Assembly: GCA_037380845.1 (NCBI GenBank)
Contig: JARRRI010000014.1
Span: forward strand, 1-22,237
Source of the DNA: Candidatus Sulfobium sp.
Lineage (GTDB): Bacteria; Nitrospirota; Thermodesulfovibrionia; Thermodesulfovibrionales; UBA6898
Length of the DNA: 22,237 nt
Reading direction: 5' to 3'
In this document: positions 3,001 to 18,000 of the stretch, piece after piece
Layout of the letters: each line of letters opens with the position of its first letter
Numbering within the stretch: the first letter of the stretch is position 1
Program-made: the position numbers

Positions 3001-6000
3001 TGTTTTTCGATAACCGCTATTTCTATGAGTTCACGGACAGGGTCGAAAAAATCGGCATAAACGTTCCGGTCTTCCCCGGAATCATGCCGGTGACGGACTG
3101 CAGGAAAATTATGGAATTCGCAAATTTTTGCAGCGCTACGGTGCCAAAGAGTGTGCGTGACGCGATGGAACCGTTTCTCGACAAGCCGGCGGAGATGAGA
3201 AAACTGGGCGTCGAACTGGCTATCCGGCAATGCAGGGACCTGATTGAGAACGGGGCAAGGTATCTTCATTTCTACAGCATGAACAGGTCCGACGAGGTAA
3301 CGGCGATCATCGACGCGCTGGATGGTGTGTAAAAATGCCCCACCCGGTGGGGCATTTTTCTACTTCCGACCTTCCTTCCGGACCCCGACAAAAATATTAT
3401 AACCTCGACCTGAGACCGCGGGAAATTACCCCGGCGGACCCGCTCCAGCCCCAAAATAGCGCATTTTTCTCCGGAACTAAACGAGCATCGGCCCGATGGC
3501 ATTGCAATTGCATATTTATATCACGTGAACAATATTCTCCTTTGCACCCACAATCCGATATCCGTCAAAAACCTTTACGGAATATTGAGGGATGAGGGAT
3601 TTGGGGTAGAGACTGCGGACCATCCCGCGCTGGCTGTCCGCATGGTGCTTGAACAGAGCTACAATGCCGTCATAATCGATTCCCAGCCCTTCGGCCTCTC
3701 CGTGGGAGACGCAGCCAAGATCATAAAGACCGTCTCCCCGGAAACAACGGTCATTTTGGTCGGCTGCAGCGACGATGATCAGGACAGCCCCGGTATAAAT
3801 GTGCCCATGGATCTATCGGAATTGAGAAATCTGGTCCATAATGTTATAAGCGTCCGCAAAATTTCGAAAACTTAAGGAGGAGAGAAGAGATGGCTATGAC
3901 ACCGAGAGAAACCATCATGAAGGCGTTCGAGCTGGGCAAGCCCGAAAGGGTTCCGGTGACGCTCTTCGGGGCCGGCATGTGGAGCATCAAGGACTATGGA
4001 ACGTCTTTCGAGGAGCTCGCAAGCGATCCGGCAAAGATGACGGATATGTGCGTGACGGAGGCAGAAAAGATAAGGAGCGACGTCGTCTATGTCGGCTCCG
4101 GTTACAACAACTTTCACGCTTCAGCCCTGGGGAAGGCTTTCGGGGTCGGCATGAAGTACCGCGAGATAGGCGCACCTGACCTCACGGCCCACATCGTCAA
4201 TACCGAGGAAGATATAGACAAGCTCAATATAGCCGACATACACAAGGACCCCGTGATACAGACCGTCGTGGATGCCACCCGCAGGGTCAAGGAAAAGATC
4301 GGGAACAAGTATCTTGTCACCATGACCTGCTGGGGACCTTTCACCCTGGCCGCGCGGTTTGTCGGCGAAGAGGTTTTTATGAAGGCGACATTCAAGAAGC
4401 CCGCCTTCGTCGAAAAGATGATCGACTTCTGCGCCGACCTGCTCATACATCTTTACGAGCCTCTTGTCAGCGACGGGACGCTCGAATGCCTCAGCATCGC
4501 CGACCCCACCGCCTCCGGAGACCTCATCAACCCCAAGCAGATGGAGCGTTTCGCGGTCCCGCCCCTGAAGAAAATGAGCGACTGGGCCAAATCGAAAAAC
4601 GTCCACACCATCCTGCACATATGCGGCAATACGAGCGACCGTCTCGACATGTTCCCGATGACCGGCTGCTCGACCATATTCTTCGATCAGAAGGTGGACA
4701 TAGCCAAGGCTAAGGAGGTGCTCGGCGGAAAGATGTGTTTTGGCGGCAACATCGCCCCGGTCCATGTCCTCCTGAACAAATCTGCGGCCGAGGTAGAGGC
4801 GGCGTGCAGGGAAGTCATAGAAATAGCTGCGAAGGACGGCGGATACATACTGGTGCCTGGCTGCGACATACCGCCGACCATACCTTATGAAAACATAAAG
4901 GTATTTCACGACGTCGCCCTCAACTGGAAATATTAATCAACAAACGTGCCTGGTCCCGGACGGGAGGTGAAAAGAAGAAAGGGATTGAGGCGAGACCCCA
5001 GATAAGGGGAGGTGAAAGATGGGAATTCTTGAGAGAATCATGTCGGCCATGAGGCCGGCGAACAAAATCAAGGAGGAAACGAAAATGGCAGAAACTATGA
5101 CCGTTGAACAGGTAAACGAGTACATGAAAGAGAAGTGCGGCTTCGTGCCGAGGATGTTCCAGATAATCAACACGGTCACTCCCGAACCCGGAAGGACGTT
5201 CGCCGATTTCTATGCAAGCATTTTCGGAGACGGGGCGCTTTCAAAAAAGATCAAGGAACTGATGTTCATGTCCGGCGGCGTCGGCTACTGCTCGCCAAGA
5301 TGCATCATTCACGTCATTCCGGCTATCAACGCGGGGGCGACCACCCAGGAAATATTCGAGGCCGCTGCCGTGGGCATGATACTCGCCGGTTTTGTGCCGG
5401 GCGGTCCGGGCATTCCCTATGCATTCGAGTATGCGCTGAAATGCCTCGACATAGAGGCGAAGTACAGAAAAGGGGAGAAATGGGAGTACCTGCCGCAGCC
5501 CAGGTTCGACCACGGCGTATTTTAAACAAAGGCAATTGGCACGGGGCAAGGGGCGAGAGGGAAGACATAAGGTGAAGCCTTTCTTCAGTCACCTGCCCAC
5601 GGCTTCTTTCCCGCAGTAAAAAAGAGGCAGCGCCTTTTGAGGGAACGCTGCCTGAGCAGATGGTATATATCGGTATATTAACATAATTTCGACCTAAAGG
5701 AGATGTAATGTTCAAGTTTCAGAAAGAACAGAAGGTGTTCAGCTTCGGCGGGATCATGATCGGGGGCCAGCCCGGAGAGAATCCGCCGTTGATGATTTCC
5801 TCGATGTTCCACAATAAAGACAAGATACTTCAGGACAGAAAGGGCAATTTCGACAGGCAGAGGGCAACAGAGATCATCCGGAAGCAGGAGGAGATGACGA
5901 AGGTGACGGGCGTCCCCGGAATGGTCGCCATGGTCGCCAACTCGCCCGACGAGGCGAAGATCTACATTGATTTCTTCCTGGAGACAACGGACATGCCTTT

Positions 6001-15000: not shown

Positions 15001-18000
15001 CAAAGGGACCCACGCCGTCGAACCGCGGGTGATATCCAAAAAAATTTCGGAGCAGGAGATAAAGGAACTGTTATGCGCTATCCGGAAGAAGAACTGATAG
15101 AAATAATGAAAAAGGAAGGGGTTGATTTTACCGCTTCCCTGCCCTGCGAAAAGATCAAGGGTCTTTTGACCATGGTGGACCGGGAGTTCTTTCATATCCC
15201 TCTGACGAGGGAGGAGGAAGGTGTCGGGATCTGCACGGGGGCCGCTCTGGCAGGAAAAAGGCCTGCGATGTTCGTACAGAGTTCCGGCATGGGCAACATG
15301 ATCAACGCCCTTCTCTCCCTCACCGGTTTTTATGAACTCCCCCTTGCCGTCTTTATCAGCAGGAGAGGGATATACAAGGAGAAGATCGAGGCCCAGATGC
15401 CCATGGGCAAAAGGCTGCCCGGAATTCTCAAGGGAGCTGCCATACGTCACACGGTCATCAATTCAACCGAAGATTTCAGACTGGTGAAGCCGAGACTTGA
15501 AGAAGTGTACGGGAAAAACGAGATACACGCTTTTCTCCTCAGCCCCGCCCTTTGGGAGGAGTCCTGCGTAGCGGAGATCCTTTTGTCGAACCAGTGTCCG
15601 ATATCATCAACCCCGATGACACGGCCGGAGGGCGAACAGGTCCCGCAACTTACCCGTTATCAGATCATAAAAACGATCTCGCCTTATCTGGAATCCAGGG
15701 TCGTAGTATGCAACCTCGGCATCCCGTCAAAAGAGCTTTACTCACTCAAGCACCAGCCTTCCAACTTCTATATGCTGGGCAGCATGGGCATGGTCACACC
15801 CATTGGTCTGGGCCTGAGCCTTTCGACGGACAGGGAGGTTATCGTAATCGACGGCGACGGGAGCATCCTCATGAACCCCGGAACACTGGCTACCGTGGCA
15901 CATTCGGCCCCGCCAAATCTGACCATCCTCGCCGTCGACAACAGCGCTTACGGTTCGACGGGCAGTCAGCCTACTCTGACCGGCTCATGTGTCGACCTTG
16001 AGCTTGTTGCCCGGGGGTTCGGAATAAGAAACACCGTCAAAGTCTCGACCGAGGAAGGGATCATCGAGGTGATGAAAAAAGCGAAAAATGAGGGCCTGCG
16101 CTTCATCCATGTCCTGGCCCTCCCCGGCAATGAGGCGGTCCCGAACATCCCCATTCACCACCTGGAGATAAAGAAGCAGTTTCAGGAGTTTCTGAAAAAA
16201 AGATGACGCCCCCACAAGGGAGGCATCAGTCACCTCTTACAATCCTTTGCAGGTCACATTGTTCCGGCAAGAATACCTTCCAGTATTTCGTTCAGGTCAG
16301 AACACAGTCTGAATCCATTGTTCAGATAAGCCATGTTCCAGGGGAACAATAACCCTGTCGCCAATGCCCCGCTGCCGGCCGCTTTCTCAAGAACCTGCGG
16401 GGAATCGTCTACGACTACGGCGGTCGTACCGTCTATCAGTCTCGTCTTATTGAAAGACAGGTGGATATCCTCATAAACAAGGCCGTGTTTCCCCAGCCAT
16501 CTTTGGGTTTGGGACATGAACGAGGGGGAACGGTGACTGGCTATCGTGACATGATAGCCGTTTTGCCTCAGGCCTTCAAGGAAGCCCCTGGCTTCGGGAT
16601 AGGGCCTGAACGCATCGCTGTCCTGCTTAAGATGGACGGCGCCGACGGCGCCCAGGAAGTCCTGTTCCGAGCAATATCCCTCCCATATATCCCAGTTGGT
16701 CCACTTATCCGGGGGCGGGAAATTTTTGTTTATCTTTCGCAGTTCTTCATAAAAGGCATCGCAAAACTGCCAAAGGGTATTGTCTATGTCCACGATTGCC
16801 CTTTTCATGTTCGGTTCATCCCATCCATATGATATTATAACCAAGATGTCAGAGTACTTCCCCATGTTGTCGACAAAGCCACCCTCTCCCTATCCTACCC
16901 CTCCAGCTGAAAGTGATACATGATATCCCCGCTTACTGTGTAAGAGGGCGGTGTTCGTTCCGAAATATTCACGGAGATTACTTCCTTGACTTCGCATTCT
17001 GCGGATAAACATAGAGCATGTCATATTCTCGTGAAAATCAGTGCAATCGAACTATCTCGGAGATAACAAGAAAACTTGTTATCTCCACTTTTTGCATTGT
17101 TAACGGGTTAGAACGTGAGTAAATTCTACTCATTTATGTAAAGTTCTGTCGCACTCATTGACGAAGTATGATGACTGACGTATGATAACGAGAAAACTGG
17201 TTAATAATATAGTTTGGCATCATAGAACCATGGTATAGGCATTGCACCGGTTAGAAGGAGGATCGCACATGCCGTATGTCAACCCGCAATATTTGGTCGA
17301 AACTGCATGGCTTGAGGCCCACTTGCAGGATACCAACCTGCGCATGATCGAGGTCTCAGGCATGCTTAACGCCCAGCGGAAAAACATCGCCAAAACCGTT
17401 TGCTACGACAAGCGCCACATCCCCGGCGCGGTGTTTTTGGATGTTGCAAGTTTCTATGGCCCCTTCTCGGACCCCCGGGGCACCTTTCCCCTGACGTGGC
17501 CCACGCCGACACAATTTGAAGCGATCATGGGCCAACTGGGCGTCGGCAATGATGCGCACGTGATCCTCTATAGTTCCACCGTCGGGCAACGACATTACAG
17601 TTGTCAGATGTGGTGTACACGCGCTTGGTGGATCATGCACCACTTTGGGGTGGAGTGCGCCATTCTCAACGGGGCGTTGGAGAAGTGGATGGCTGAAGGA
17701 CGTCCGGTCACCGCCGTGCCGGGGTACTATCCACCAACCCACTTTCGTGCCGACCCCCACTGGCGGCGCGGTATTGCCTATAAAGAAGATGTGCTGAAGG
17801 CCCTCCAGGGCGATAGGTCGTGTTGCGTGGTGAATGCGCTGCCTGCTGATCAATTCATGGGGGAAAGTGCGATCGTCTATGGCCCGAGGAAGGGTCACAT
17901 TACCGGCTCTGTGAGCGTCCCCATGCCGGACTTGGTGGACTGGGACACCGGGGTCTTTGCCAGTGCGGAAGCGATGCGTGCGCATTTTGACCAGGCAGAC

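Follow-up and report, generated by a model that had tools for sequence, protein, structure and literature searches.

Genes at the locus

The window, which is the whole stretch of 22,237 nucleotides that was analysed from contig JARRRI010000014.1 of Candidatus Sulfobium sp., carries at 3525-16206 on the + strand a cluster of 13 genes that appear as 14 open reading frames (ORFs), since a TAG codon splits one gene. An earlier note on this DNA had counted 14 genes, one too many, as the split MtrH-like gene makes two ORFs; the one-strand cluster that it described, with its genes and family scores, was otherwise borne out, apart from the points taken up below. The features are listed below; where two numbers are joined by > or <, the second is the cut-off.

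1949..2476, +, OsmC-like thiol peroxidase family protein, upstream context (PF02566 75.5 bits)
2466..3332, +, methylenetetrahydrofolate reductase MetF, upstream context (TIGR00676 327.1 > 293.7; PF02219 311.6 bits)
3525..3875, +, receiver-only response-regulator-like protein (PF00072 24 bits, under the cut-off of 30.2)
3890..4936, +, MtaA1, divergent MtaA-like UroD-family methyltransferase with His-Cys-Cys (PF01208 202 bits)
5019..5525, +, AhpD/CMD-like redox protein with a CSPRCxxH motif (PF02627 26.4 > 23)
5708..6667, +, MtrH-family methylcorrinoid:pterin methyltransferase, interrupted by TAG at 6014-6016 (NF002142 322.1 > 287, taken with the TAG read as X; PF02007 168 bits)
6704..7729, +, MtaA2, MtaA/CmuA-family methylcobamide:thiol methyltransferase (NF004889 265 > 244; TIGR01463 241.2 > 235.4)
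7729..8412, +, corrinoid protein with B12-binding_2 and B12-binding domains (PF02310 88.5 bits, PF02607 76.9 bits)
8417..9082, start uncertain, ORF from 8297, +, QueG/RdhA/CblC-fold protein with two [4Fe-4S] motifs (Fer4_16 35.6 bits)
9394..11388, +, RACo-type ATP-dependent reductive activase of corrinoid proteins (PF14574 319, PF17651 180, PF17650 83, Fer2 34 bits)
11404..11721, +, DUF6951 small Cys3-His protein (PF22263 105.3 > 27)
11776..11845, no strand, dispersed repeat of ~65 bp in the spacer between DUF6951 and cytochrome b, not part of the function (blastn)
11907..12590, +, membrane di-haem cytochrome b of the NarI/DsrM/HdrE type (DsrM weakly, 61 < 300)
12580..13839, ORF from 12478, +, HdrD-like Fe-S protein with two ferredoxin-type [4Fe-4S] motifs and two CCG domains (PF02754 73.3 bits in 2 stretches; Fer4_8)
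13841..15097, +, cysteate synthase, CS (TIGR03844 480.7 > 324.9)
15073..16206, +, fused sulfopyruvate decarboxylase ComDE (TIGR03846 234.1 > 221.5; TIGR03845 184.7 > 147.95)

The stop of the HdrD-like gene and the start of CS are 1 base apart, and the ORFs overlap in the cytochrome b/HdrD and CS/ComDE pairs. Orthologues of the receiver-like protein, 39-59% identical, lie directly 5' of MtaA1 in 9 loci with enough upstream DNA, and locus L060 carries an OsmC-like copy, 65% identical, at its 5' end. The loci of relatives were fetched with 10 kb flanks, and MetF falls beyond them. The dispersed repeat has 29 further blastn matches in the genome, one of them at window 21954-22015. Metagenome contigs end at this repeat, and in 3 metagenome runs a variant has 16 other letters instead of 177 bases (11716 to 11894).

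Sulfonate genes and their distribution

By the equivalog cut-offs that CS and ComDE pass, the presence of both committed enzymes of the type 2 coenzyme M (CoM) pathway is supported. Aligned over its full length, CS shares 45% identity with the enzyme of a Methanosarcinaceae MAG. The order of CS followed by ComDE is kept in 72 of 73 loci from Nitrospirota, and among 80 diverse metagenome loci 31 have it too. When ComDE was scored as a phosphonopyruvate decarboxylase it fell below the cut-off (TIGR03297, 202.4 < 312.5). A source of sulfite is present in the same genome (DsrA, 549.9 > 392.85), and in 16 loci CS-ComDE have a binding protein of the SsuA/NMT1-like kind no more than ~5 kb away. In passages of PMC12068725 the response of M. 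acetivorans to CoM starvation is given as ssuA/ssuC, cs, comDE, and hdrABC. The earlier note had reported no ComF gene in this genome, and this holds: PF01837 was not found in any of 101 genomes of the order, including this one, which is 100% complete. ComA was likewise not found in this genome. With ComF missing from all 101 genomes and ComA from this one, no complete known CoM pathway is present and the step to the thiol is a guess.

CS over the cut-off was found in 36 of the 101 genomes (62 genera), and the MtrH-like and HdrD-like genes were found in the identical 36; the other 65 hold none of the three, a split that reflects few independent events as these genomes are kin. This repeats the earlier observation for CS and the MtrH-like gene. 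These two genes share a contig in 23 of the 36 genomes; the distance between them is 7.5-9.4 kb in 22 of these and 15.4 kb in the remaining one (mostly 8-9 kb in the earlier note). Unlinked arrangements also occur: in G005 the CS, MtrH-like and HdrD-like genes are on three separate contigs, in G042 HdrD is on a different contig, and in G049 (locus L020) cytochrome b-HdrD-CS-ComDE form a block of their own away from the methyltransferase genes. Five genomes were identified by way of loci that were atypical or carried odd labels; in all 5 the MtrH-like gene was over the cut-off, and 3 of these have CS-ComDE apart from the methyltransferase genes. Among 80 related loci that were fetched, collinearity was judged on those with at least six cluster genes, and the gene order agreed with that of the window in 56 of 56, which extends the conserved order noted earlier in fewer relatives. 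Together these data support the conclusion that CS/ComDE are evolutionarily locked to the methyltransferase and HdrD-like genes, the unlinked cases included.

In an unrelated, distant low-GC lineage (L119), an aminotransferase-CS-ComDE-SBP run adjoins DsbA-CMD-HdrD-cytochrome b, with identities to the window of 46%, 51%, 54%, and 41%; it is with the CMD that adjoins the HdrD-like gene there that the AhpD-like protein of the window shares 54% identity. An AhpC gene is also present. Corrinoid methyltransferases, DUF6951 and the QueG-like protein were not found at this locus. As CS-ComDE stand here beside cytochrome b, HdrD and AhpD-like genes without methyltransferases, the sulfonate genes are tied first to a thiol/disulfide module. 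In its gene content this arrangement supports a thiol as the product, served by a redox module of its own, and it shows that methyl carriage is neither the sole nor the original role of the sulfonate/Hdr module.

Methyl-transfer and redox proteins

The earlier note had named two MtaA/MtbA-like methyltransferases. Of these, MtaA2 passes NF004889 and TIGR01463 and matches the CoM methyltransferase MtaA of M. mazei (4AY7, 1.4e-49, full length, residues 2-331), and the divergent MtaA1 stays under every MtaA/CmuA cut-off (190.5 < 235.4, 175.5 < 244); the MtaA or MtbA equivalog cut-offs are reached by neither paralogue. MtaA1 orthologues are at least 62% identical in 30 loci, with H243, C245, and C325 invariant in 21 of 21 sequences, and H238, C240, and C316 of MtaA2 are invariant in 48 of 48. 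According to PMC10418091, His-Cys-Cys zinc ligands in this superfamily mark S/Se-methyltransferases and not O-demethylases. Both paralogues retain these ligands.

PDB sequence matches of the MtrH-like protein include MtrH (8z9u_B, 1.6e-49) and a methylcorrinoid:tetrahydrofolate methyltransferase (6sj8, 5.2e-36). The name MtxH that it had been given is unsupported, and the M. acetivorans control fails NF002142. Its TAG had been described as unseen in relatives and as a possible sign of a broken gene. The former is confirmed, as the codon is TGG in 44 of 44 relatives; the latter worry is largely resolved, as base 6015 is G in the near-identical contigs of all three metagenome runs that cover it (X1, X5, X9), and the TAG occurs in this assembly alone. 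The label RamQ for the activase is likewise unsupported, and the highest score of this protein is to AcsV (NF040756, 479 < 800). The corrinoid protein is just under TIGR02370 (204.8 < 215.3).

The HdrD-like protein is below every NCBIfam cut-off (best TfrB, 183.5 < 385; DsrK, 91.5 < 400) and has 18 Cys invariant in 66 of 66 sequences. In the cytochrome b, H78, H88, H188, and H202 are invariant (52 of 52), and its counterparts in L119 and on contig C10 of the same genome match PF02665. C91, C95, H98, and C142 of the AhpD-like protein are invariant in 34 of 34 sequences. The QueG/RdhA-fold protein has eight invariant Cys (50 of 50); its AF2 model has a mean pLDDT of 69.7, with the N-terminal 140 residues high, and Foldseek matches it to QueG (5d0a, 2.8e-9), PceA (4ur3, 5.5e-8), and MMACHC (3som, 1.8e-4). 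In DUF6951, C11, C35, H72, and C75 are invariant (60 of 60); among 14 control genomes the family was found in M. acetivorans only. Its AF2 pLDDT is 92.4, and the likeness of its fold to IscU/SufU/SufE is weak (best Foldseek E 0.027; VIA Z 5.8, tied with unrelated folds).

A candidate sulfonate thiol and its possible roles

The explanation that we tentatively favour, at somewhat under an even chance, is a bacterial system centred on a CoM-type sulfonate thiol that would be made without ComF, kept reduced or formed by the membrane module, and exchange methyl groups with tetrahydrofolate. CS, by its family membership, would form cysteate from phosphoserine and sulfite made by the Dsr-containing cell, and an unlinked aminotransferase together with ComDE downstream of CS would yield sulfoacetaldehyde. 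This may be converted to the thiol by the cell's own sulfide, which according to passages of PMC12068725 may carry out the last CoM step non-enzymatically, or with help from the cytochrome b/HdrD-like, AhpD-like, QueG/RdhA-fold and DUF6951 proteins. From their families and conserved residues, the membrane pair of cytochrome b and HdrD-like protein would, together with the AhpD-like protein, join the thiol/disulfide couple to the quinone pool. The cluster has one corrinoid protein; the two MtaA-like Zn (His-Cys-Cys) enzymes would move methyl groups between it and the sulfur of the thiol, the MtrH-family enzyme between it and tetrahydrofolate, and RACo would repair the corrinoid cofactor. By this architecture methyl-thioethers, be they methyl-CoM, methyl sulfides of the environment or both, would be connected with the Wood-Ljungdahl pathway by a soluble system that resembles MetH or Mtr.

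This reading draws on the equivalog scores of CS and ComDE, the all-or-none distribution that survives unlinking, the collinearity, the invariant His-Cys-Cys of both MtaA paralogues and the match of MtaA2 to 4AY7. Ties to tetrahydrofolate add to it, namely MetF upstream, a gene inserted into the cluster in 7 loci that we take, from reading the ORF cluster's sequence, to be FolD, and acetyl-CoA synthase in 96 of the 101 genomes; so do the conserved Cys and His of the HdrD-like protein and cytochrome b, the L119 module, the SsuA/NMT1-like neighbours and DsrA. Against it, the stoichiometry of methyl transfer from methyl-X to tetrahydrofolate needs no CoM, and contig C22 of the same genome holds another UroD-CP-MtrH-RACo cluster without sulfonate genes. 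ComF and ComA are missing, McrA was not found in this genome, as had been stated before, and no reaction is known that consumes methyl-CoM without Mcr. The L119 module lacks corrinoid methyltransferases, MtaA1 and the HdrD-like protein fail their cut-offs, CCG proteins also serve non-disulfide enzymes, and the genomes are kin. Of the earlier proposal that CoM is made and used as methyl carrier and disulfide couple, the enzymes, the genomic lock, the His-Cys-Cys residues and the lack of Mcr stand; CoM as the product, the action of MtaA and disulfide reduction stay predicted. A group of sulfate-reducing Nitrospirota thus combines both key CoM synthesis enzymes of methanogens with genes for methyl transfer and disulfide reduction that resemble those of methanogens. 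This suggests that CoM, regarded as a cofactor of methane archaea, may also be in use by anaerobic bacteria unable to make methane.

It is unlikely that the cytochrome b/HdrD-like and AhpD-like proteins, possibly with the QueG/RdhA-fold and DUF6951 proteins, replace ComF by a quinol-driven reductive thiolation of sulfoacetaldehyde and do not recycle a disulfide. The lack of ComF in all 101 genomes, the tight HdrD/CS spacing and overlapping ORFs, the stand-alone block of G049, and the L119 counterparts beside a complete sulfoacetaldehyde operon with its aminotransferase all favour such a role, and the QueG/RdhA fold catalyses reductive C-O and C-halogen chemistry. The last CoM step requires sulfur and two electrons, as given in passages of PMC12068725, which fits this role as well. 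CCG proteins are not known to form C-S bonds, however, and the HdrD-like protein keeps all residues of a disulfide-reducing HdrD. By the same passages of PMC12068725 sulfide may carry out the step non-enzymatically, and DUF6951 is only weakly like IscU/SufU and belongs, with the QueG-like protein, to the methyltransferase half that L119 lacks. Less probable still is a fate of sulfoacetaldehyde other than a thiol (taurine, isethionate, sulfoacetate or a sulfolipid precursor), with a regulatory or accidental link to the other genes. The missing final CoM step would fit this, as would CS homologues in other bacteria, e.g. a Phycisphaerae MAG, and in Bacteroidota such homologues serve sulfonolipid synthesis. 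Yet CS keeps ComDE in nearly every Nitrospirota locus, its partners are thiol/disulfide and thiol-methylating proteins across two distant lineages, no Xsc over the cut-off was found in this genome (347.5 < 676.4), and family searches found no likeness to a sulfoacetaldehyde reductase, dehydrogenase or aminotransferase among the cluster proteins.

A division into two co-travelling functions is a somewhat better candidate than either of these, though still doubtful. The methyltransferase half (MtaA1, MtaA2, corrinoid protein, MtrH-like, RACo) would take methyl groups off methyl sulfides or selenides from the environment (dimethyl sulfide, methanethiol, methylmercaptopropionate) and pass them directly to tetrahydrofolate, and the sulfonate half (CS, ComDE, cytochrome b, HdrD-like, AhpD-like) would make and recycle a low-molecular-weight thiol as redox buffer or antioxidant and not as methyl carrier. 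By the criterion of PMC10418091, His-Cys-Cys suits methyl-sulfide or -selenide substrates as well as CoM. Having two MtaA paralogues would fit the removal of both methyl groups of dimethyl sulfide one after the other. Marsh and salt-marsh metagenomes are the source of the DNA that is near-identical to the window, an OsmC gene precedes the cluster in the window, the L119 module has DsbA-like and AhpC genes without methyltransferases, and CoM is an antioxidant in methanogens according to PMC12713407. Two independent functions should nevertheless have separated in some of the 62 genera, but the methyltransferase marker, CS and the HdrD-like gene occur all together or not at all, also where they are unlinked.

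Gene content of the cluster and the interrupted MtrH-like gene

When the open reading frames between 3525 and 16206 were named by family scans with curated cut-offs, thirteen genes were found on the + strand, with an OsmC-like gene and MetF directly upstream. The earlier note had given 14 genes because an in-frame TAG splits the MtrH-like gene into two ORFs. The scores quoted in that note were reproduced exactly and two of its labels were dropped, namely 'MtxH', since an M. acetivorans control fails NF002142, and 'RamQ', since the best score of the activase is to AcsV and is yet under the AcsV cut-off. 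These scans place the cysteate synthase, the fused sulfopyruvate decarboxylase ComDE, MtaA2, the MtrH-like protein, the corrinoid protein and the activase of the RACo type (reductive activase of corrinoid proteins) in their families.

Genes of the cluster and directly upstream of it, with scores against cut-offs and, at the end of the line, the number of relatives' loci with the gene as a neighbour over the number of loci whose fetched DNA reaches far enough
1949-2476, +, OsmC-like gene, directly upstream of the cluster
2466-3332, +, MetF, directly upstream of the cluster
3525-3875, +, receiver-only domain, PF00072 24 bits, below its cut-off
3890-4936, +, MtaA1, divergent UroD-family MtaA-like protein, below MtaA/CmuA cut-offs, PF01208 202 bits
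5019-5525, +, AhpD/CMD-like protein, PF02627
5708-6667, +, MtrH-family methyltransferase, NF002142 322.1 > 287, PF02007 168 > 22.8; 43/45
6704-7729, +, MtaA2, NF004889 265 > 244, TIGR01463 241.2 > 235.4, PF01208 233 bits; 44/48
7729-8412, +, corrinoid protein, B12-binding domains; 47/51
about 8417-9082, +, Fe-S protein, two [4Fe-4S] motifs; 49/52
9394-11388, +, RACo-type activase, four RACo/Fer2 domains; 52/55
11404-11721, +, DUF6951, PF22263; 58/61
11907-12590, +, membrane cytochrome b, weak DsrM match; 53/62
about 12580-13839, +, HdrD-like protein, two ferredoxin motifs and two CCG domains; 59/63
13841-15097, +, cysteate synthase, TIGR03844 480.7 > 324.9
15073-16206, +, fused ComDE, TIGR03845 184.7 > 147.95, TIGR03846 234.1 > 221.5; 72/73

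The TAG at 6014-6016 lies inside the MtrH-like reading frame of this assembly, as had been noted earlier with the worry that this copy is broken or misassembled. The codon is there in this assembly, but it is TGG in all 44 relatives whose alignment covers the column, and in near-identical contigs from public marsh and salt-marsh metagenome runs position 6015 is G and not A in each of the three runs that cover it (X1, X5 and X9; X10 is uncovered there). No tRNA with the anticodon CUA was found among the 38 tRNAs predicted by Aragorn, which include one tRNA-Sec. From these three observations the TAG is most probably either a consensus error or a nonsense variant private to this assembly, and not a recoding signal; pyrrolysine recoding is rejected, and in the population the gene is probably intact.

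A promoter scan gave 11 sites compared to 6.9 +/- 2.4 in shuffles and a terminator scan gave 20 compared to 14.8 +/- 3.7, and given these shuffle values the counts are no help as a guide to operon limits; there was no RNA among the 13 sequencing runs listed. A palindrome-rich dispersed repeat of about 65 bp lies at 11776-11845 and 21954-22015 of the window and has 29 more blastn matches elsewhere in the genome. The copy at 11776-11845 is a point where metagenome contigs break, and in three runs a variant has 16 other letters for 177 bases of the spacer between DUF6951 and cytochrome b (11716 to 11894).

Conservation and distribution in the order

A scan of one genome per species gave 445 relatives of the cysteate synthase, and neighbourhoods with 10 kb flanks were taken from the best 80 of these 445. 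Nearly all of the 80 are labelled Nitrospirota, Thermodesulfovibrionales or 'Candidatus Sulfobium' MAGs, with 64-77% identity. The gene order is conserved, and the earlier claim of a shared one-strand order in relatives was borne out, as all 56 loci holding at least six cluster genes were collinear with the window. Some of the loci that miss the cytochrome b have a divergent 270-residue NarI-like protein in its stead. Orthologues of MtaA1 (at least 62% identity) were present in 30 loci, the AhpD/CMD-like gene in 38 and the receiver gene in 9, and these counts are a minimum as the 10 kb flank ends too early in the remaining loci. The conserved block stops at ComDE. In this genome only, ComDE is followed by a HAD-family gene on the - strand and a two-domain rhodanese gene (16254-18183), and in none of the 80 loci does either gene lie near ComDE, so that neither the rhodanese (17242-18183) nor the HAD gene qualifies as a conserved donor of sulfur. 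The genes directly after ComDE in the closest relatives are a radical-SAM/HhH gene and an amino-acid permease gene (18951-21572 in the window).

Other genes join the cluster in some relatives. A FolD-like ORF, named by reading its sequence without a family search, is inserted in seven loci, and a methyl-accepting chemotaxis protein gene, also named by reading its sequence, lies between DUF6951 and cytochrome b in six (for example at 6384-7982 of the relative's locus L073). An NMT1/SsuA-like binding protein was found within about 5 kb of the cysteate synthase-ComDE pair in 16 of the 55 loci with at least 2.5 kb downstream. In the genome studied here this protein, 67% identical, is on another contig (7309-8235 of locus L086, which is G000:C23:6000-22000) and has no ABC permease or ATPase gene beside it in that locus. 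In a MAG labelled Rokuibacteriota (L049) the pair is followed by a ThiF/MoeB-family gene and preceded by the gene of a small Fe-S protein like sulfite reductase (3133-4215, 11154-11951), and an MtrH-like gene is elsewhere in that genome.

When 101 genomes of the order were sampled, the cysteate synthase over its cut-off, the MtrH-family gene and the HdrD-like gene (at E <= 1e-80) were each found in 36, and the three lists were identical. The remaining 65 hold none of the three, and the distribution is thus all or none. That the same 36 genomes hold the MtrH-like gene and the cysteate synthase had been claimed before; this was reproduced, and the HdrD-like gene shares them. The positive genomes span seven of the thirteen families. 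Because the genomes are kin, few independent events of gain or loss underlie the 36/65 split. The cysteate synthase and MtrH-like genes share a contig in 23 of the 36, at a distance of 7.5-9.4 kb in 22 and of 15.4 kb in one. The pattern also holds without linkage: in G005 each of the three genes is on a different contig and only housekeeping genes lie in the 10 kb upstream of the cysteate synthase (L076), in G049 cytochrome b, HdrD, cysteate synthase and ComDE stand alone (L020) with the methyltransferase genes elsewhere, and in G042 HdrD is on a separate contig. The MtrH-like gene was also over its cut-off in all five genomes that were reached through atypical or oddly labelled loci, in three of which the cysteate synthase-ComDE pair is apart from the methyltransferase genes. 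The association is real, strongly conserved and non-random. That the genes are retained together even where they are unlinked speaks for a functional dependence of the sulfonate, methyltransferase and HdrD-like modules on one another.

Sulfonate genes, methyltransferases and redox module

The cysteate synthase passes the TIGR03844 equivalog at 480.7 against a cut-off of 324.9 (480.5 in the whole-genome search), and the two other ThrC-like genes of the genome reach only 61 and 56 bits against this model. From its family membership it is predicted to form cysteate from phosphoserine and sulfite. The alpha and beta parts of ComDE are both above their equivalog cut-offs (184.7 > 147.95 and 234.1 > 221.5), and the protein fails the phosphonopyruvate decarboxylase model TIGR03297 (202.4 < 312.5). 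The solved chains nearest to it are of the phosphonopyruvate decarboxylase 9iz3, and no sulfopyruvate decarboxylase was named among its 51 PDB sequence matches. As in type 2 (Methanosarcina-type) coenzyme M (CoM) biosynthesis, the two genes are adjacent and in the order of many archaeal loci, the cysteate synthase is 45% identical to one of a Methanosarcinaceae, and, as in the CoM regulon of M. acetivorans, an SsuA-like binding protein is often near the pair. Unlike in the type 2 systems, the host is a Dsr-containing bacterium that has no Mcr, the pair sits within a methyltransferase/Hdr cluster, and ComF and every other COG1900 protein are absent. The organism was known for two of the ten representative clusters of cysteate synthases looked up, and these were a Phycisphaerae MAG and a Methanomassiliicoccus MAG.

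The absence of ComF, which the earlier note had pointed out for this genome, was confirmed and extended. There were no matches to ComF/MMP16 (COG1900, PF01837) in the genome, which is 100% complete, nor in any of the 101 genomes of the order, and the controls M. jannaschii and M. acetivorans do match. The phosphosulfolactate synthase ComA (PF02679), which belongs to the bacterial Xcb or type 1 CoM pathway, had no matches in the genome either, McrA is absent and no Xsc was above its cut-off. None of the known CoM pathways is complete in this genome. DsrA is over its cut-off with DsrB adjoining, and acetyl-CoA synthase is present here and in 96 of the 101 genomes; sulfite and sulfide are available in the cell, and its tetrahydrofolate C1 pathway can accept or supply methyl groups. 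It has been reported, in passages of PMC12068725, that CoM can arise non-enzymatically from sulfoacetaldehyde and sulfide and that cells with ample sulfide can do without MMP16, and therefore a ComF-free route is plausible in a sulfide-producing cell. The same passages describe that CoM starvation of M. acetivorans raises ssuA/ssuC, cs, comDE and hdrABC together, and because of this parallel CoM is favoured as the identity of the thiol. We infer CoM, or a thiol close to it, as the product.

The zinc ligands of both MtaA-like proteins are conserved, H243, C245 and C325 of MtaA1 in 21 of 21 relatives and H238, C240 and C316 of MtaA2 in 48 of 48. According to passages of PMC10418091, a His-x-Cys...Cys zinc triad in the UroD superfamily marks S- or Se-methyltransferases, and O-demethylases replace a Cys. 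MtaA2 passes subfamily models (265 > 244 and 241.2 > 235.4) and can be aligned with M. mazei MtaA 4AY7 (1.4e-49) along its whole length, but it does not reach the MtaA (241.9 < 400) or MtbA (175.4 < 600) equivalogs, and MtaA1 passes no MtaA/MtbA family or equivalog cut-off. The two paralogues are like MtaA, MtbA and MtsA of methylotrophic methanogens in the UroD fold, in the invariant His-Cys-Cys site and in the cognate corrinoid protein and activase that adjoin them. The cluster differs from the methanogen sets in that it is without MtaB, MttB or any other MT1 gene and in that its activase is of the bacterial RACo type and not RamA. The MtaA-like enzymes may use a CoM-type thiol as methyl acceptor.

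The MtrH-like protein is under the MtrH equivalog (156.5 < 271.4) and MtgA (147.5 < 550) cut-offs. Its nearest solved relatives are MtrH chains, the best being 8Z9U, an entry for which no associated paper was found, and among bacterial proteins the methylcorrinoid:tetrahydrofolate methyltransferase 6sj8 of D. hafniense. An MtrH-family methyltransferase, a corrinoid protein, a zinc methyltransferase and an activase are also what make up the bacterial three-component methyl-X:tetrahydrofolate systems (MtgABC/RamQ, O-demethylases), and this module logic is common to cobalamin methionine synthase MetH. Unlike in those methyl-X systems, two S-type UroD enzymes replace the MT1 of the MttB family or O type, and sulfonate-biosynthesis and HdrD/cytochrome b genes are always in company. 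Presumably the mec cassette and the Cmu (CmuAB) systems are comparable as well. That the cluster is the methionine synthase of the cell is unlikely, since the pterin-binding, B12-binding and activation parts of MetH are each matched by a gene of its own at G000:C30:37426-42768 and the cluster is in only 36 of 101 genomes; neither MetE nor a full-length MetH was found in the genome.

In the redox module the ligands are conserved as well. The HdrD-like protein, with PF02754 in two stretches, keeps 18 Cys (eight ferredoxin and ten CCG) in 66 of 66 sequences, and the cytochrome b keeps H78, H88, H188 and H202 in 52 of 52, so that two ferredoxin-type clusters, two CCG domains and four haem-ligand His, the HdrDE architecture, are all present. 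A membrane di-haem cytochrome b with a cytoplasmic protein of two [4Fe-4S] clusters and two complete CCG domains is likewise found in HdrDE of cytochrome-containing methanogens and in DsrMK/HmeCD of sulfate reducers, but the pair here is below all curated cut-offs (TfrB 183.5 < 385, DsrK 91.5 < 400, DsrM 61 < 300). The DsrK and DsrM scores also reject the pair as DsrMK, and the true dsr genes, dsrAB with a DsrM-like gene, are on contig C51. The HdrD-like complex would act on the disulfide of a CoM-type thiol. We take its quinone partner to be menaquinone, in the place of the methanophenazine of methanogens; coenzyme B synthesis is not known to have a dependable family marker. The AhpD/CMD-like protein keeps C91, C95, H98 and C142 in 34 of 34 relatives.

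Two smaller proteins were modelled. In the AlphaFold model of the Fe-S protein (pLDDT 69.7) the N-terminal domain is confident, and because the model matches QueG (epoxyqueuosine reductase, 2.8e-9), PceA (reductive dehalogenase, 5.5e-8) and MMACHC (B12-processing, 1.8e-4) the protein is no plain ferredoxin and is a short representative of the B12-binding QueG/RdhA/CblC fold with two [4Fe-4S] motifs. DUF6951 keeps a Cys3-His set (C11, C35, H72 and C75) in 60 of 60 relatives, the spacing of which we take to resemble that of IscU. Its model (pLDDT 92.4) had a weak best Foldseek E of 0.027, with IscU, SufU, SufE or CsdE in most of the top rows, and a VIA Z of 5.8 (rmsd 3.5 over 92 residues) that is tied with lipoate ligase and CODH domains; the weak likeness to IscU/SufU/SufE may serve as a lead only. 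An Atlas search returned only DUF6951 clusters, from Nitrospirota and Chloroflexota, and the term DUF6951 was in no paper found by the literature search.

Alternative readings, precedents and related sets

When metagenomes were scanned with diverse cysteate synthases, 80 loci were obtained, in 31 of which ComDE follows the cysteate synthase. Methyltransferase or Hdr neighbours were found only in seven Nitrospirota-type loci and in L119, a locus of 34% GC with an archaeal-type CTP-dependent riboflavin kinase. In L119 (region 9006-17128) a class IV aminotransferase, cysteate synthase, ComDE and an NMT1-like binding protein are on one strand, and a PNPOx-like, a DsbA-like, an AhpD/CMD-like and an HdrD-like protein, a NarI-like cytochrome b and a second DsbA-like protein are on the opposite strand, and there are no corrinoid methyltransferases. 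Identities to the window are 46% for cysteate synthase, 51% for ComDE, 54% for the AhpD/CMD-like protein and 41% for HdrD. The closest named relatives of its cysteate synthase are from Hydrothermarchaeales MAGs (52-55%), an order reported, in passages of PMC6775978, to be without Mcr. This single locus shows that cysteate synthase-ComDE with HdrD/cytochrome b and the AhpD-like protein is a unit of its own in a very distant organism and that methyl transfer is an addition to the module and not its core. Such a unit fits a thiol product that has a redox module in the membrane at its service. Genes for an AhpC-like protein and for a small cytochrome c are also near by in L119.

The reading that we prefer, and to which we give a little less than an even chance as a whole, is that a CoM-like thiol is made without ComF, is kept in redox service by the cytochrome b/HdrD-like module and exchanges methyl groups with tetrahydrofolate. 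A stricter form of it, which we regard as doubtful, is that genuine CoM arises by a ComF-independent route using the cluster's own proteins and is run through a methanogen-style cycle without methyl-CoM reductase, in which one corrinoid protein would carry methyl groups between methyl-CoM and tetrahydrofolate and the HdrDE-like complex would wire the CoM thiol/disulfide couple to menaquinone. The methyltransferase half might instead take methyl sulfides or selenides straight to tetrahydrofolate, with the thiol as a purely redox buffer; set beside the co-retention of the three modules, this division of labour seems unlikely to us. The type 1 mlp clusters of Kountz and Balskus, for which methyl-sulfur or methyl-selenium substrates are proposed in passages of PMC10418091, likewise come from anaerobic bacteria and combine several His-Cys-Cys MtaA-like proteins with a corrinoid protein and a RACE/RACo activase, but they are described there as being without a tetrahydrofolate methyltransferase and here an MtrH-family gene is present. 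It is slightly more unlikely again than this division of labour that the Hdr, cytochrome b and AhpD-like proteins are the missing thiol-forming step and not a recycling system, a reading that is compatible with CoM production and with the composition of L119. That sulfoacetaldehyde goes to a non-thiol sulfonate is improbable, with S-type zinc sites in both MtaA-like proteins and the L119 unit on one side and the lack of ComF on the other.

The cluster combines known parts in a new way and in an unexpected host, and it points to a CoM-type thiol that originates independently of ComF and is used outside methanogenesis. CoM is known from methanogens, alkane-oxidising archaea and, by way of a different pathway, a few aerobic bacteria that oxidise alkenes (passages of PMC9457059 and PMC12068725). 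The closest published idea is that MtrAH of non-methanogens feeds methyl groups into the Wood-Ljungdahl pathway (passages of PMC9635834), and the other close precedent is the mlp clusters, where cysteate, sulfopyruvate, MtrH and Hdr each have 0 occurrences in PMC10418091. Full-text searches, with most subscription journals outside their scope, found no link of these bacteria to cysteate synthase or CoM, and the main text of the 'Candidatus Sulfobium' paper (PMC5812927) has no mention of corrinoid, methyltransferase, coenzyme M or heterodisulfide. Public annotation pipelines already name the gene 'cysteate synthase' in Nitrospirota MAGs. If the preferred reading is true, CoM would gain a new place and a new use in a widespread clade of anaerobic sulfate reducers, whose committed archaeal enzymes are locked to thiol methyltransferases and to a complex like Hdr. 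It would also indicate a ComF-independent last step, where the installation of the thiol is debated even for methanogens, and would add a route from methylated sulfur compounds to the Wood-Ljungdahl pathway in marshes, paddy soils and aquifers. In its stricter form the reading would make this the first CoM-dependent C1 metabolism among anaerobic bacteria, and would make these bacteria targets of the 'methanogen-specific' inhibitor bromoethanesulfonate, the specificity of which may fail.

The genome holds further corrinoid methyltransferase sets without sulfonate genes. One on contig C22 (8328-13490, - strand, of locus L085, which is G000:C22:60000-79999) has a corrinoid protein, a His-Cys-Cys UroD protein, a CobW-like GTPase, a 145-residue ORF, an MtrH-like protein and a short RACo, and no sulfonate or Hdr genes. 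Another, on C41 (L168, G000:C41:8000-22000), has a UroD-CobW fusion, an unknown protein of 898 residues with a CbbQ-like AAA protein, DUF2284, a UroD protein, and a corrinoid protein and RACo with 57% identity to the cluster copies; a two-component system is alongside and an MtrH-like gene is absent. A UroD paralogue on C67 is 48% identical to MtaA1. A second pair of NarI-like cytochrome b and HdrD-like protein, the latter 75% identical to the cluster copy, stands alone on C10 with a cytochrome c gene adjoining (5921-7931 of L167, G000:C10:22000-36000), and G001, another genome of the order, likewise has two HdrD-like copies.
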